The notes under the pieces: model-generated
What the model was told of the DNA's origin: nothing
The model's database searches: none
The model's input: the letters and a program-made list of their open reading frames with translations, nothing else
Source: Candidatus Sulfotelmatobacter sp.
GTDB taxonomy: Bacteria > Verrucomicrobiota > Verrucomicrobiia > Limisphaerales > UBA11358
Direction of reading: 5' to 3'
DNA: 64,000 nt
NCBI GenBank assembly: GCA_035503455.1
Contig: DATJTK010000080.1
Span: 73,271 to 137,270 of the forward strand
Program-made: the position numbers and the translations under genes
Shown here: piece by piece, positions 47,391 to 54,647 of the stretch
Numbering within the stretch: position 1 is the stretch's first letter
Layout: every line of letters begins with the position of its first letter

Positions 47391-47516
47391 ATATCGTTAA
47401 AAAATTAAAAATAAAAAACCCAGCGCCGACAATCGCCGACACTGGGTCAGGAGGAACCGAGGTCAAAAACCTCATGGATAAACAGATTAATTGAACCCGC
47501 CCAAAAGTCAACATCA

Positions 47517-49657: not shown

Positions 49658-51034
49658 ATGTCCACGCTGAACGTCAATCTGGATTTGGTGAAGAAATACA
49701 ACGTGCCCGGGCCGCGCTATACAAGCTATCCGCCGGCCACAAAATTCACGCACGCCCTCGCGTGGCCGGAACTTTTTGAGAAAATCGCGGTAAACAACCG
49801 CTCCGGCCGCGGACTCTCGCTTTATTTCCATATCCCGTTTTGCGAAACCCTTTGCTGGTTTTGCGGCTGTACAACCGTAATTACAAATAATCACGGGCAG
49901 GCAAAATCGTATTTGGACCACCTGGAAAAGGAAGTCACACGCATGGCCTTGCTGCTGGACCCGGGACGGGAAGTCGTTCAATTGCATTGGGGCGGCGGTT
50001 CGCCAACGTTTCTGCAGCCGGATGAAATCCGACGCCTCGGCGACATCATTCGCAATCGGTTTAACTTTTCCGGCGACGTCGAAGCCAGCGTGGAAATTGA
50101 TCCGCGCCGGCTGACGCGCGACCACGTGGTTGCGTTGCGCGACGCGGGCTTCAATCGGGCATCCCTGGGTGTGCAGGATTTCGAGCCGCACGTGCAGGAA
50201 GCCATCCATCGTATCCAGCCCAGGGACATGACCCAACAGGCGCTGGATTGGGCGCGTGAAATGGGGTTCCGCTCGGTGAATTTCGACCTGATTTACGGTC
50301 TTCCCCATCAAACGGTCAAATCGTTCAGCCGGACATTGGAGGCAGTCATGGAAATGGCGCCGGACCGGCTGGCCGTTTTCAGCTACGCGCACGTGCCGTG
50401 GATCAAACCGGCGCAAAAAAATTTGGAACAAAAGGTCCTGCCAACGCCGGAAACGAAACTGGAATTGCTGAAGATCGTGATCGAACGGCTGACCGAAGGC
50501 AGGCGTTATGTCTATATCGGAATGGACCATTTTGCGCGCCCCACCGATGAGCTGGTCACAGCCCAACGCAACAAGACCCTGCAACGGAATTTCCAGGGGT
50601 ACAGCACGCGCGGAAACGCGGACATTTATGCGTTCGGCATGAGCGCAATTTCGCAAACACCGGATATATACTGGCAAAATGAAAAGGAATTGTCCGCTTA
50701 CTATGCCGCGCTGGACTCGGGCAACGCCCCTTTCCCGCGGAGCTATATTCTGACGGATGAAGATAAAATCAGGCGTGAAACAATCATGCGAGTCATGTGC
50801 AATCTCTCGCTGGATTTCGCGGCCATGTCCCGCGAGCTGGGCATTGCGTTTGAAGAACACTTTGCCGATGAATTGGATGCCCTTGCGCCGTTCGAGGAGG
50901 ACGGATTGGTCCGCCGCTTTGCCGGCGGCCTGGAGGTAACAGAAACCGGCCGGCTGTTTATCCGGAACATCGCAATGTGTTTCGATAATACACTGGCGCC
51001 CCAGGGAGAACGCCGCTTTTCAAAGACGATCTAG
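49658..51034 (+). CDS. hemN: Oxygen-independent coproporphyrinogen III oxidase (radical SAM)
   Basis: YNVPGPRYTSYPPATKF, LSLYFHIPFCETLCWFCGC, GGGSPTF and SLGVQDF motifs. Length is 458 aa. Confidence 0.95.
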   Translation: MSTLNVNLDLVKKYNVPGPRYTSYPPATKFTHALAWPELFEKIAVNNRSGRGLSLYFHIPFCETLCWFCGCTTVITNNHGQAKSYLDHLEKEVTRMALLLDPGREVVQLHWGGGSPTFLQPDEIRRLGDIIRNRFNFSGDVEASVEIDPRRLTRDHVVALRDAGFNRASLGVQDFEPHVQEAIHRIQPRDMTQQALDWAREMGFRSVNFDLIYGLPHQTVKSFSRTLEAVMEMAPDRLAVFSYAHVPWIKPAQKNLEQKVLPTPETKLELLKIVIERLTEGRRYVYIGMDHFARPTDELVTAQRNKTLQRNFQGYSTRGNADIYAFGMSAISQTPDIYWQNEKELSAYYAALDSGNAPFPRSYILTDEDKIRRETIMRVMCNLSLDFAAMSRELGIAFEEHFADELDALAPFEEDGLVRRFAGGLEVTETGRLFIRNIAMCFDNTLAPQGERRFSKTI

Positions 51035-51090
51035 TTGTGTTCGGTGTACACGCTTTAGCGTGCTCCCCGGATATCAGTGGTGCCACCTTC

Positions 51091-51133
51091 ATTCGATTTT
51101 GGGCGTTCGATGTTCGATGTTCGATGTTTTGGG
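51091..51133. repeat. (CGATGTT)n heptamer repeat element
   Basis: The sequence attcgattttgggcgttcgatgttcgatgttcgatgttttggg lies downstream of hemN and directly follows a cacgctttagcgtg hairpin copy (51041-70). Confidence 0.8.
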
Positions 51134-51195
51134 ACTGCCTGAACCCTGTTTCGAGCCCTATTGACCTTCACGCCGTCCCCTGCTATTATTGCTTC

Positions 51196-51313
51196 GTGAA
51201 TCGCAACTTAAACCTGAATCTGCTGCTACTGCGTCGCATGGCGGTCGGGTTCTGATTTGCATTCAACGTTTTATCAAACCCCATCGCCAACCCGGCGATG
51301 GGGTTTTTGTTTT
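51196..51313 (+). promoter_or_regulatory. Leucine leader peptide + transcription attenuator upstream of leuA
   Basis: The GTG at 51196 opens a 19-codon ORF, VNRNLNLNLLLLRRMAVGF* (6 Leu, 4 of them consecutive), with its stop at 51253-55. A perfect terminator follows. The segment ggcggtcggg (51240-49) could alternatively pair with the terminator 5' arm. Confidence 0.6.
51279..51313 (+). terminator. Intrinsic terminator (attenuator 3:4 hairpin)
   Basis: A perfect 10-bp stem pairs ccccatcgcc (51279-88) with ggcgatgggg (51294-303). The loop is aaccc, followed by tttttgtttt. The terminator ends 47 nt before the leuA ATG. Confidence 0.75.
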
Positions 51314-51359
51314 CATGTAGCACGAGAGCAAAAGCGCCATCGCCATAACTGAAAGAAAC

Positions 51360-53018
51360 ATGCAACAAGAACCGTCGAAAAAGTATCGTCCGTTTCCGCA
51401 AGTGCCATTGCCGGACCGCCAATGGCCCGCTCGCACCCTCACGCGCGCGCCCATCTGGTGCAGCGTGGATTTGCGCGACGGAAACCAGGCGCTTGCCGTG
51501 CCCATGAACGTTTCACAAAAACTCGACCTGTTCCAGACACTCGTCAAAATCGGGTTCAAGGAAATTGAAGTCGGATTTCCCTCCGCCTCAAATACCGAGT
51601 TCACATTCAACCGCGGGCTCATCGAGGAAAATCGCGCGCCCGCCCACGTCTGGCTCCAATGCCTCGTGCAGGCGCGCGAGGATTTGATCGAGCGGACCGT
51701 GGAATCGCTCATCGGCGCGAAAAAAGCGATCATTCACTTATATAACTCCACCTCGCCGGCGCAACGGCGGGTCGTATTCGGGAAATCGAAGGAGGAAATC
51801 ATTCAAGTGGCCGTGCGCGGAACGGCATGGATCAAGGAACGCGTCTCGCGCCTTAAAGGCACAGAAGTCATGTTCCAGTATTCACCCGAGAGCTTTTCCG
51901 GCACCGAAGTGGAATTTGCAAAGGACATTTCGGAAGCGGTCATCGATGTGTGGCAGCCCACGCCCGAGCGAAAGATGATTTTGAACCTCCCGGACACCGT
52001 GGAAGTGGCCATGCCCAACGTCTATGCCGACCAGATTGAATGGATGTGCCGCAACATCAAAAAGCGCGATTCAGTCATTATTAGCCTGCACACACACAAT
52101 GACCGCAGCACCGGCGTGGCAGCCACGGAATTGGGGTTGCTCGCGGGCGCTGAACGCGTGGAAGGCACGCTCTTCGGCAACGGCGAACGCACCGGCAATT
52201 TGGACATCGTTACAGTCGCGCTCAACCTCTACATGCACGGCATTGATCCGGGCCTGAATCTTTCGAATTTAAATTCGATCGTTGAGGTCTACGAACGCTG
52301 CACCGGCATGATTGTCCCGCCGCGCCATCCGTACGCCGGGGAGCTGGTGTTTACCGCATTCAGCGGGTCGCACCAGGACGCCATCCGCAAGGGGTTGGCC
52401 GAATGGAAACAGCGCGGGCAGGCGCATTGGGACGTGCCCTATCTCACCATCGACCCGGCCGACATCGGACGTGAGTATCGCGAAGTCATCCGCGTTAATT
52501 CCCAGAGCGGCAAAGGCGGCGTGGCCTATCTTCTGGAAAGCGAATTTGGCATCGAACTGCCCAAAGAAATGCAGCGCGAATTTGGACCCATAGCCAATGA
52601 CGCCGTGGACCGGCTCGGACGCGAGGTCCTGGGCGCTGAACTGAAGCAAATGTTTTGGAAAGAATACGTGGAACGGGATTCACCGTGGCAGTTAAAATCG
52701 TTTGCCACGGAGAGCAAAAATGGGGTGGTCAAATGCCGCGCCGCGTTGACTCGCGCCGGCGCGCCCGTTGAAATTTCCGGCGAAGGCAACGGCCCATTGG
52801 CCGCCCTCGTTCACGGCCTGGGCACAACCGGCGCGCGCTTCGAAATCTTGAACTACAGTGAACACGCCCTTAGCTCCGGCGAAGAAGCCGCGGCCATAGC
52901 CTATATCCAAATTAAAACCCCCGATGGCCAGGCCCGCTGGGGCGCTGGGGTGGATACCAACATCGAATTGGCCAGCGTGCGTGCAGTGCTGAGCGCGCTA
53001 AACCGGATTGGTGGATAA
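51360..53018 (+). CDS. leuA: 2-isopropylmalate synthase (long LeuA form)
   Basis: KYRPFPQVPLPDRQWP..APIWCSVDLRDGNQAL, HTHNDR, GERTGN, and a C-terminal LeuA dimerisation/regulatory domain. Length is 552 aa. Confidence 0.95.
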   Translation: MQQEPSKKYRPFPQVPLPDRQWPARTLTRAPIWCSVDLRDGNQALAVPMNVSQKLDLFQTLVKIGFKEIEVGFPSASNTEFTFNRGLIEENRAPAHVWLQCLVQAREDLIERTVESLIGAKKAIIHLYNSTSPAQRRVVFGKSKEEIIQVAVRGTAWIKERVSRLKGTEVMFQYSPESFSGTEVEFAKDISEAVIDVWQPTPERKMILNLPDTVEVAMPNVYADQIEWMCRNIKKRDSVIISLHTHNDRSTGVAATELGLLAGAERVEGTLFGNGERTGNLDIVTVALNLYMHGIDPGLNLSNLNSIVEVYERCTGMIVPPRHPYAGELVFTAFSGSHQDAIRKGLAEWKQRGQAHWDVPYLTIDPADIGREYREVIRVNSQSGKGGVAYLLESEFGIELPKEMQREFGPIANDAVDRLGREVLGAELKQMFWKEYVERDSPWQLKSFATESKNGVVKCRAALTRAGAPVEISGEGNGPLAALVHGLGTTGARFEILNYSEHALSSGEEAAAIAYIQIKTPDGQARWGAGVDTNIELASVRAVLSALNRIGG

Positions 53019-53057
53019 ATGGATTGATGGATTATTGGATTGATGGGAATCCCGTTT

Positions 53058-53387
53058 CACATTTTTTGGGTGTACGAAATGAAACGGCGAAACGGGAGGG
53101 ATTTGAGTGAGGAAAATGTGTTTTTAATGGGGATTTTGAAGGTTTTGGCGAAGGCGAGAGGAAACGGCATGGAGAGCCTGAGTGAATAAGGCAGGTCAGC
53201 CCGATTGAGACCCGCGGAAGGCTCACCTGAAGCGATCCAGCAGCCAACGGGCGGCTCTTCGCGCACGACAACCCACCGTTTCCAGGTCCCTGGCCATTTT
53301 TCCCAAAATCGCCAATATAAACGTACTTTTTCGCAAAAATCCCGTTCGTTTCCCTTTTGCAATCCCCATATCCAAAAAATGTGCGCG
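53058..53387. repeat. Inverted pair of the ~105-bp dispersed element (arms 53058-53150 and 53281-53387)
   Basis: The left arm begins cacattttttgggtgtacgaaatgaaacggcgaaacggg. The right arm ends cccgttcgtttcccttttgcaatccccatatccaaaaaatgtgcgcg, which is its reverse complement type. Both resemble 8254-8359. Confidence 0.6.
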
Positions 53388-53486
53388 AGTCTTAGTTAGG
53401 GCCTCCCAGTGGCCTCATCCTTTTTCCTTTTTCCTTTTTAATTCTTTCCCTATCCTCCCGTGAACGCGACGACGTCGCGAGTCATC

Positions 53487-54647
53487 ATGAACATTCGGCA
53501 CACGCAATTCCTGGCCGCCCTGGCGGTATCATTCCTTATCGCCGGTTGCGGCAAATCTTCATCCACTTCGCCCGCGCCGGGCGGTGGCTCTGATATCATC
53601 AAAGTGGGAGAGTACGCTTCTCTTACCGGCAAAGAAGCGGGATTTGGCCAGTCTTCACACGACGGCACCGTGCTGGCGGTGGATGACCTGAACGCGGCCG
53701 GCGGTGTCCTGGGCAAAAAAATCCAGCTCATTACTGAAGACGACCAGTCGCAAGCCGGGCAGCCGTCCATCGACGTTCGCAAATTGATTTCAGACGATGG
53801 CGTCGTGGCGGTTTTGGGCGAAGTGGCTTCGTCCCGGTCGATGGAAGCCGCGCCCATCTGCCAGGAGAACCAGATCCCGATGATTTCACCTTCTTCGACC
53901 AACCCGAAAGTGACGGAGACGGGCGATTACATCTTTCGCGTCTGTTTCATTGATCCGTTTCAAGGGACGGTGATGGCGAATTTTGCGACCAAAACGCTGA
54001 AATTGAAAACCGCGGCGGTGTTTACGGATGTGACCAGCGATTACAGCATGGGGTTGGCAAAATTTTTCAAGGACAGCTTCACGGCCAATGGCGGAAAAAT
54101 CGTCGCCGACGAGAAGTACAACGGAGGCGACAAAGATTTCAGCGCGCAATTGACAGCGATCAAAGCCGCAAATCCCGACGGCATTTTTATTCCCGGTTAT
54201 TATACGGAAGTAGGGTTGATTGCGATACAGGCCCGGCAATTGGGTCTGAATATCCCTTTGTTTGGCGGCGACGGCTGGGAGGGCGCGCCCTTGATACCGA
54301 TTGGCGGCGCGGCGCTGGAAGGCACGTATTTTTCCACGCATTTCACGCCGGAGGACACGACGCCGGTCGTGCAGGATTTTGTGAAGAAATATGAGGCCCG
54401 TTATAATGCCACGCCCGACGCCATGGCCGCACTGGGGTACGATTCGCTCATGATTCTGGCAGATGCCATGAAGCGCGCCGGAACAACTTCCGGCCCGGCT
54501 GTCCGCGATGCCCTGGCCGCCACGAAGGATTTTCCGGGCATTACGGGTAAAATCACCATCGACAAGGACCGGAACGCATCAAAGCCGGCAGTGATTTTGG
54601 AAGTCAAAAACGGGAAGTATAATTACGTGCAGACGATTGCGCCGTGA
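53487..54647 (+). CDS. livK: Branched-chain amino-acid ABC transporter substrate-binding lipoprotein (LivK/LivJ family)
   Basis: The ATG at 53487 gives MNIRHTQFLAALAVSFLIAGC (lipobox). Type-I PBP motifs follow: IKVGEYASLTGKEAGFGQSSHDGTVLAVDDLNAAGGVLGKKIQL. Confidence 0.88.
   Translation: MNIRHTQFLAALAVSFLIAGCGKSSSTSPAPGGGSDIIKVGEYASLTGKEAGFGQSSHDGTVLAVDDLNAAGGVLGKKIQLITEDDQSQAGQPSIDVRKLISDDGVVAVLGEVASSRSMEAAPICQENQIPMISPSSTNPKVTETGDYIFRVCFIDPFQGTVMANFATKTLKLKTAAVFTDVTSDYSMGLAKFFKDSFTANGGKIVADEKYNGGDKDFSAQLTAIKAANPDGIFIPGYYTEVGLIAIQARQLGLNIPLFGGDGWEGAPLIPIGGAALEGTYFSTHFTPEDTTPVVQDFVKKYEARYNATPDAMAALGYDSLMILADAMKRAGTTSGPAVRDALAATKDFPGITGKITIDKDRNASKPAVILEVKNGKYNYVQTIAP

Follow-up and report, generated by a model that had tools for sequence, protein, structure and literature searches.

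What occupies the gap between hemN and leuA in a Verrucomicrobiota genome, and does it control leuA? The locus lies in a 64,000-nucleotide (nt) stretch of Candidatus Sulfotelmatobacter sp. DNA (contig DATJTK010000080.1, positions 73,271 to 137,270), called the window below; coordinates follow its own numbering, and features lie on the plus strand unless stated otherwise. An earlier reading of the letters alone (the sequence-only reading) had placed a leucine-codon leader peptide and an attenuator at 51196–51313 and had expected the leader to be unannotated. The annotation of the source contig indeed has no gene called between hemN and leuA. Comparative and structural analysis of the sequence strongly supports the leader-peptide attenuator: the element is very probably a leucine-sensing, ribosome-mediated transcription attenuator controlling leuA. 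The proposed limits stood as the boundaries from open reading frame (ORF) to T-run, but the functional unit is wider, extending from a promoter at 51161 to about 51344.

The hallmarks of attenuation seen in the sequence are a leucine-rich upstream ORF, an intrinsic terminator, a mutually exclusive antiterminator, and a helix (1:2) that contains the regulatory codons. On their own, the single promoter-like and the single terminator-like match at the locus do not rise above shuffle expectation; the decisive evidence is conservation in relatives.

The leader frame and its linkage to leuA

The leader ORF (51196–51255) opens with GTG at 51196–51198, continues for 19 codons and stops at 51253–51255. 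It reads GTG AAT CGC AAC TTA AAC CTG AAT CTG CTG CTA CTG CGT CGC ATG GCG GTC GGG TTC TGA (translation VNRNLNLNLLLLRRMAVGF). Six codons specify leucine (tta, ctg, ctg, ctg, cta and ctg, at codons 5, 7 and 9–12), four of them consecutive. Direct reading confirmed each of these details as first described.

Genome relatives were fetched through the LeuA protein, one genome per species and independently of the leader sequence. The closest LeuA relatives come from Verrucomicrobiota metagenome-assembled genomes (MAGs) labelled Limisphaerales, Pedosphaera or ‘subdivision 3’ (74–91% identity), followed by proteobacterial LeuA (~53–55%). Thirteen Verrucomicrobiota genome loci have upstream DNA and a LeuA of about 77% identity or more. 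In 12 of them the same layout precedes leuA: TTGAC(C/G), 17 nt, TAnnnT, 6–7 nt, GTG or ATG, a leader ORF and a terminator. The shared ORF pattern is AAT nnn AAY YTR AAY CTG ... CTG CTG ... GCG GCR GYC GGG TTY, then a stop codon.

Metagenome loci were collected with a degenerate DNA pattern derived from the genome-locus sequences, and all metagenome counts given here are among the matches listed. The scan found at least 119 loci; two (L096 and L110) are chance matches, leaving at least 117. A leuA gene (75–93% identity) lies 60–480 nt downstream in 99 of the 119, and nearly all of the other 20 have no downstream sequence. The mini-ORF and terminator are thus not peculiar to the window but stand before leuA in 12 genome loci and at least 117 metagenome loci, the outcome that favors the sequence-only reading. 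No other gene travels with them. The upstream gene differs in all relatives (hemN in 0 of 67), a liv-like (LivJ-like) gene is downstream in 0 of 41, and leuA is the only conserved partner gene of the element.

A covariance model, R1, was built from 112 distinct leaders. It matches the window exactly once (97 bits) and also picks up L013, a more distant locus that was not among the leaders used to build it (E 3e-7). Among the fetched loci, R1 found no match in more distant Verrucomicrobia or in Proteobacteria.

Several properties support the mini-ORF as a conserved coding frame, as judged from sequence. The search pattern set no multiple-of-three rule on its variable gap, and in 117 of 117 true matches listed the start and stop are in frame with no internal stop. 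ORF length is 19–24 codons in the 112 distinct leaders and reaches 25 among further metagenome matches. These leaders start with GTG (103, or 92%) or ATG (9) and end with TGA (90), TAG (16) or TAA (6); TGG never occurs at the stop position, though the pattern allowed it. Frame +1 is interrupted by a stop in all 112. Leucine codons number 745 in frame 0 versus 82 and 62 in the other frames. Each leader has 4–8 of them, and leucine accounts for 32% of leader codons versus 9.8% of 12,434 codons in the window's genes (long ORFs). In the 12 genome loci, which are unbiased by the pattern, codon 5 is always leucine, via four different codons. The C-terminal A-A-V-G-F is conserved, and the conserved peptide positions correspond to base-paired nucleotides. 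Unpaired codons vary freely (codon 3 can be R, Q, C, H, N, G, L and others), as expected if the leader peptide itself does nothing once made.

The regulated gene, leuA (51360–53018), encodes a 2-isopropylmalate synthase of the long ‘yeast/actinobacterial’ type (NCBIfam TIGR00970 ‘leuA_yeast’, 723 bits, cut-off 697). Two metagenome-assembly contigs in ENA encode exactly this LeuA. The upstream flanking gene is hemN (TIGR00538, E 1e-179). After leuA come a 440-nt gap, a LivJ-like branched-chain amino-acid ATP-binding cassette substrate-binding protein (53460–54647) and a permease.

We rejected three other accounts of the locus. The element is not a mobile or repeated sequence, being single-copy in the window by leader, terminator and covariance-model searches. 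It is not the terminator of hemN or part of a hemN–leuA unit, given how hemN is distributed among relatives. A co-regulated leuA–liv operon fails likewise, this neighborhood being conserved in none of the 41 relatives. The interval 53019–53460 contains no second leader for the LivJ-like gene: no Leu/Ile/Val mini-ORF and no convincing terminator or antiterminator was found there.

Competing helices in the leader RNA

How would translation of the leader affect transcription of leuA? Folding of 51190–51320, a check suggested with the sequence-only reading, gives −50 kcal/mol (z = −5.5, 0 of 200 shuffles as good). Two arrangements compete in the leader, 1:2 with 3:4, or 2:3. Region 1 (51208–51228; UUA AAC CUG AAU CUG CUG CU) supplies the 5' strand of helix 1:2 (anti-antiterminator or pause) in the minimum free energy (MFE) fold. 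Region 2 (UGGCGGUCGGGUUCUGAU, 51239–51256) covers the last five codons and the stop, with region 1 or region 3 as alternative partners. Region 3 (AUCAAACCCCAUCGCCA, 51272–51289) contributes the antiterminator 3' strand; its core, 51276–51288, doubles as the terminator 5' arm. Region 4 (GGCGAUGGGGUUU, 51294–51306) is the terminator 3' arm. The T-run tttttgtttt (UUUUUGUUUU) occupies 51304–51313.

The terminator is a 13-bp stem (51276–51306) with 8 G-C pairs and a 5-nt loop, at −23.9 kcal/mol by terminator scan and folding. The 10-bp stem described earlier, ccccatcgcc (51279–51288) with ggcgatgggg (51294–51303), pairs perfectly and forms part of it; the T-run was also placed correctly, ending 47 nt before the leuA ATG at 51360. 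The antiterminator had been proposed to use ggcggtcggg (51240–51249). That segment is present and conserved in relatives, but the pairing is longer, joining 51239–51256 to 51272–51289 through 7+5+4 bp with two 1-nt interruptions (−17.8 kcal/mol isolated, −20.2 in the nascent transcript). In the 1:2 helix, region 1 pairs with 51239–51252 (−17.9 kcal/mol).

Single-sequence folds agree across the family on region 1 pairing with region 2 and on a separate 3:4 terminator; longer members have a small apical hairpin. To count paired cells by column we used a MAFFT alignment of the 112 sequences (A2), which was not fitted to any structure, with slid partners as controls. The terminated fold (1:2 plus 3:4) is paired in 98.3% of cells, compared with at most 57.9% slid; 7 pairs vary in both partners, and none of 500 shuffles scores as high. 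The terminator is 98.9% paired, with exchanges at column pairs 124/149 (CG 64, AU 42) and 130/143 (UG 78, CG 16, UA 16). The 1:2 consensus helices (columns 21–24/87–90, 31–33/84–86 and 39–41/81–83) are 98–99% paired versus at most 58% slid. One of their pairs, 21/90, joins the third base of the Leu-5 codon to the third base of the Phe codon (GC 59, GU 24, AU 21).

The antiterminator, whose region 3 is outside the search pattern, is paired in 93.4% of cells versus at most 54.5% slid. Column pair 81/130 is AU in 54, GU in 40 and GC in 17, with one non-pair in 112; a C at column 130 in region 3 (ATCGCC in the window) is always met by a G in region 2 (17 G-C pairs). Most members have a U·G wobble in the terminator where the antiterminator has a Watson–Crick A-U, a contrast that looks like tuning of the balance between the two.

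Two further helices were considered and set aside as firm parts. A possible outer helix P1 (51197–51265) would enclose the whole ORF by pairing UGAAU.GCAA (51197–51206) with UUGCAUUCA (51257–51265). This pairing of the 5' end with the post-stop TTCAC appears in MFE folds of the window and most relatives, but it is 71% paired, with no covariation beyond shuffles, and P1 stays tentative. In most TGA leaders the stop codon can pair with ATC(R) and so lengthen the antiterminator; compensatory cases such as TAGT/ACTA are few and the signal is noisy.

Nascent-RNA folds with a modelled ribosome agree with the claim that stalling favors the antiterminator and that a ribosome at the stop masks it. When the ribosome is set on Leu codons 9–11 and the RNA ends at the terminator loop, the fold is 2:3 (−19 to −20 kcal/mol). 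Moved to the stop codon, where its footprint size suggests that it would cover region 2 completely, the ribosome leaves only 3:4 to form.

The proposed mechanism is as follows. Transcription would start at or within 1 nt of G51196 from the TTGACC-17-TATTAT promoter. The RNA would begin with the GUG start codon, and a ribosome would load on the 5' end without a Shine–Dalgarno (SD) sequence. If charged tRNA-Leu is plentiful, the ribosome would reach the UGA at 51253 and cover region 2; if no ribosome has loaded, region 1 would pair with region 2. In both cases region 3 would be free for region 4, and the 13-bp hairpin with its U-run would terminate transcription near 51309–51313. If Leu-tRNA is scarce, the ribosome would stall on the region 1 Leu codons (5, 7 and 9–12), leaving region 2 free to pair with region 3 as it emerges. 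Region 4 would then have no partner, and RNA polymerase would read into leuA. In the read-through RNA, region 5 would take up region 4 and the U-run.

Region 5 (GAGAGCAAAAGC-G-CCAUCGCC, 51324–51344; sub-segment 51337–51344 is CCATCGCC) is the partner of the T-run plus region 4 in a 4:5 hairpin spanning 51294–51344. In about 60% of members the spacer from U-run to leuA is 38–46 nt and contains a near-repeat of region 3 complementary to region 4. In the window, GGCGAUGG (51294–51301) and the U-run pair with region 5 at −32.5 kcal/mol when region 3 is unavailable. The pairing is found in 62 of 62 compact-spacer members (mean −21.2 kcal/mol, z = −2.8). These fall into two subfamilies: in one, region 5 follows the U-run at once, and in the other it comes ~25 nt further on and the U-run is paired. 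Helix 4:5 is paired in 91% and 99% of cells in the two, versus ~30–52% slid. The exception is a set of 13 type-B leaders in which slides of ±3 reach 76–80%, region 5 there repeating every 3 nt. Covariation includes exchanges of G-C to A-U and C-G (for example, GGCCGUGG with CCGCGGCC in L124).

Two-thirds of the family have region 5. In the 32 members whose spacer exceeds 50 nt there is no excess complementarity to region 4; region 5 was therefore rejected as a universal switch part and is best called accessory. By partition function, the leuA initiation region has an openness of 0.77 when 4:5 can form versus 0.67 when 3:4 is formed (0.96 and 0.64 in the window). The difference exceeds 0.1 toward 4:5 in 30 of 62 members and in the opposite direction in 3. 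These modelled values are no more than suggestive of a slightly more open leuA initiation region when 4:5 can form. We hypothesize a role for region 5 in the translation or stability of the read-through leuA mRNA. A fuller, five-segment scheme strikes us as rather doubtful: the partner of region 3 would decide termination, and 4:5 would then set how translatable or stable the leuA message is. Under such a two-tier switch, expression would be poor from any transcript that got past the terminator with no ribosome stalled on it. Combined with a start at +1, it would amount to a GUG-leaderless attenuator design found phylum-wide in Verrucomicrobiota.

Transcription start and rival explanations

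Where would the leader RNA begin? A scan of 50500–52000 found a single promoter-like site, a sigma-70-type promoter at 51161–51189, versus 0.9 expected in shuffles. Its −35 is TTGACC (51161–51166), followed by a 17-nt spacer and a TG-extended −10, TATTAT (51184–51189), giving the geometry TTGACC-17-(TG)TATTAT-TGCTTC-GTG. The same scan found no second promoter-like site between the terminator and leuA. Since the terminator is also 38–46 nt from leuA in most relatives, leuA must be transcribed by read-through.

The promoter elements keep their place relative to the leader. TTGAC lies 35 or 36 nt before the start codon in 104 of 111 relatives, and TAnnnT lies 6–8 nt before it in 107 (6 nt in 82, 7 nt in 22 and 8 nt in 3). 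The spacer and upstream DNA are not conserved, except for an A-rich tract 5' of the −35, and sequence conservation begins exactly at the start codon. An SD-like motif precedes the leader ORF in 1 of the 111 relatives; the window has none. Because the −10 ends 6 nt upstream, +1 is predicted at G51196 of the GTG. From this promoter geometry, the leader ORF is likely leaderless and GUG-initiated.

The alternative that survives best keeps the attenuator but not the leaderless start. Transcription would begin further upstream, through hemN read-through or an unrecognised promoter, and the ORF would use internal initiation independent of an SD. The promoter is a consensus match, at a frequency near that of shuffled sequence, and the leader frame is open upstream back to 51037. 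Moreover, no SD of the GGAGG type is obvious before leuA either (ATAACTGAAAGAAACATG), so this organism may often initiate without one. Against this, the −35 and −10 keep a fixed distance from the start codon amid unconserved spacer and upstream DNA, conservation sets in at that codon, and the upstream gene is different in every relative. No relative examined supports an upstream start for the ORF. We consider an upstream start improbable.

Less probable still is an independent small gene, a ~118-nt small RNA (sRNA) and/or a 19-aa peptide, with leuA nearby by chance or with the RNA acting in trans. An sRNA gene would likewise combine a promoter, a structured RNA and a strong terminator, the peptide has a conserved C-terminus, and trans-acting attenuator sRNAs and leader peptides exist, such as rnTrpL/peTrpL of Sinorhizobium meliloti (PMC7968998). 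However, the element always lies immediately upstream of leuA on the same strand, usually within 38–46 nt, which leaves no room for a promoter. The conserved peptide positions coincide with paired nucleotides while unpaired codons drift, and a conserved antiterminator would be purposeless in a stand-alone sRNA. A role in trans may exist besides cis attenuation.

Rfam was searched for known regulatory RNAs. The interval 50700–51700 gave no match to RF00512 (Leu_leader) at E ≤ 10, and the whole window matched no family at gathering score. The best sub-threshold match was the ‘trpB’ motif (27 bits versus a gathering score of 59, E 0.23), a generic hairpin-plus-terminator similarity. Sixteen related loci, other Verrucomicrobia and Proteobacteria included, gave no match and no T-box. 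A riboswitch-like, T-box-like or protein-dependent switch, in which a metabolite, uncharged tRNA-Leu or a protein binds and the ORF is untranslated, would suit the high degree of structure and alternative helices of the RNA. For the leuA ‘LEU element’ of Actinobacteria, protein binding or a riboswitch-like action has been considered (PMC1262725). Such a switch is very unlikely here. Neither the T-box nor any other of 4227 Rfam families matches at gathering score. The RNA has no conserved pocket or internal loop that stays unpaired, its conserved nucleotides falling almost entirely within the four competing strands. Conserved frame, start and stop with a threefold leucine enrichment in one frame are, moreover, unexpected of untranslated RNA.

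A number of observations weigh against the leucine-sensing attenuator itself. A close relative, L007, is without the element. The search pattern behind most members fixed TGAAT, AAYYTRRA and GGCNGNNGGGTTYTRR, so conservation at those positions is partly by construction; only the 12 genome loci, the gap region, regions 3 and 4 and the flanks escape this bias. Indels of 3n could partly stem from slippage in CTG or AATCTG repeats, and a purine at +1 is favored by transcription start apart from coding. The leucine codons are mostly the common CUG (69%) rather than rare ones. Asparagine codons are more strongly enriched than leucine codons, at 20% of leader codons versus 4.3% in the window's genes. 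Stalling at the last Leu codon (codon 12, or in longer relatives the second Leu cluster) would put the ribosome over part of region 2. At −24 kcal/mol the terminator exceeds the antiterminator (−18 to −20) in stability, so antitermination must be kinetic, as is also true of classical attenuators. Finally, we know of no demonstration of GUG-initiated leaderless translation in Verrucomicrobiota.

Asparagine alternates with leucine in the leader (N-L-N-L-N) and supplies AAY for pairing with GUU of region 2. This pairing role, or an unstructured A-rich 5' end, may be all that accounts for its enrichment.

Some further observations concern promoters and starts. By eye, the same promoter–start geometry occurs in more distant Verrucomicrobia leaders (L011, L013, L016, L019 and L032). 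The window has only one other TTGAC-17-TAnnnT-(5–8 nt)-ATG site, on the minus strand at 47510–47400, so leaderless mRNAs cannot be called common in this genome. At that site (TTGACT...TAATCT, 8 nt, ATG 47475) the ATG opens a 31-codon ORF (MRFLTSVPPDPVSAIVGAGFFIFNF...) that runs into a hairpin plus TTTTTTATTTTT. It sits between two plus-strand genes and may be a small leaderless ORF or an sRNA. The window also has a tandem heptamer, (GTTCGAT)x3 then GTT (51105–51128), some 35 nt ahead of the leader −35, which was not seen in relatives.

Relation to known leader-peptide systems

For Proteobacteria, leader-peptide attenuation is textbook knowledge, and mapped cases also come from Actinobacteria, Firmicutes and Deinococcus. 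We found no description of a leu leader or attenuator in Verrucomicrobiota (Planctomycetes–Verrucomicrobia–Chlamydiae group) in the searchable literature, whose coverage is incomplete. The kind of attenuator is known and the RNA family is new; no Rfam model covers it. Its mechanism would not surprise a specialist; the value lies in annotation and in the biology of an under-studied phylum. The family is ready for annotation, with more than 110 distinct sequences, the covariance model R1 and a structure backed by covariation, and it draws attention to a small ORF overlooked by gene callers. At the level of sequence, the element is a sign of transcription–translation coupling in a poorly studied, mostly uncultured phylum and points to leaderless, GUG-initiated translation there. 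The accessory 4:5 helix raises the question of what becomes of attenuator RNA after read-through.

Other leuA genes among the fetched loci have leaders of different kinds. In distant Verrucomicrobia (MAGs labelled Verrucomicrobiales, Chthoniobacter or Akkermansia), a different mini-ORF lies upstream of leuA at the predicted +1 (L011, L012, L014, L015, L016, L018 and L032, ~160–240 nt upstream; also L005, L019, L020 and L099). This ‘class II’ mini-ORF has no Leu run and contains an invariant in-frame CGA CTT A (Arg-Leu), as in MMICFVLRLSPLRHAVAELRFVF and MPFSLAVLRLS. A long GCUCC...GGAGC hairpin follows within a few nt, with a U-run in some members only and no Rfam match. From about eight sequences, class II could be a single-Leu-codon sensor in which a stalled ribosome masks the hairpin 5' arm. 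In Proteobacteria with long-type LeuA (L024–L080), Leu-rich mini-ORFs unrelated to the element lie upstream of leuA in 39 of 56 loci scanned. They end in ...LLLLPIGCRA in Oxalobacteraceae, ...LLLLRLTRP in sphingomonads and ...LLLLLLRPART in other Betaproteobacteria. Four of these loci (L024, L030, L035 and L065) were tested against Rfam, with no match.

The predicted coincidence of start codon and transcription start has counterparts in other phyla. Leaderless leader-peptide attenuators with mapped starts are known for Corynebacterium ilvB (PMC5784534), for Streptomyces leuS, leuA, trpE and ilvB (PMC8079986) and in Deinococcus deserti (PMC4007540). The element resembles these leaders (ilvB, leuA and trp in Corynebacterium; leuL1, leuL2, trpL and ilvL in Streptomyces lividans) in this predicted feature. 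Before leuA, the short Leu-rich peptides are MNRANLLLLRRGGSQA in C. diphtheriae, MRFGLLLLSCRGEGL in S. lividans and MNRNLNLNLLLLRR... here (with M written for the initiator), and the same long LeuA type is regulated. The peptide resemblance is short and may be convergent. Actinobacterial leuA leaders have no typical intrinsic terminator and are thought to use a pseudoknot or pairing of Leu codons with the leuA SD, the ‘LEU element’ (PMC1262725; PMC8079986). Here, in contrast, the Leu codons pair with region 2, and there are a canonical terminator and a conserved antiterminator.

A GUG-initiated leaderless short ORF is known from mycobacteria, where start-codon mutagenesis shows that the start is required (10.1101/834739). 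Like the polycysteine Ms5788A, the element has a predicted GUG leaderless short ORF, would sense the codons of one amino acid and precedes a biosynthetic gene. Ms5788A differs in sensing cysteine and in exposing a downstream SD (translation attenuation), with no intrinsic terminator (10.1101/834739).

The sequence-only reading had likened the locus to the classical enterobacterial leu layout. The four-segment design holds: as in enterobacterial leuL (RF00512) and predicted proteobacterial leuA attenuators, there is an ORF with a Leu run, 1:2, 2:3 and 3:4 segments and a terminator before a leu gene, and stalling would lead to read-through. Homology does not extend to the Leu_leader RNA family, in sequence or in structure, and the host belongs to Verrucomicrobiota (Limisphaerales or a closely related order) rather than to an enterobacterium-like lineage. 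The leader here has 19–25 codons, whereas the Escherichia coli leu leader peptide has 28. It lacks an SD and is predicted to be leaderless with GUG, it precedes a lone long-type leuA rather than leuABCD, and it has the additional region 5. The evidence from sequence nevertheless supports a mechanism that would be that of the classical leu, trp and his attenuators.

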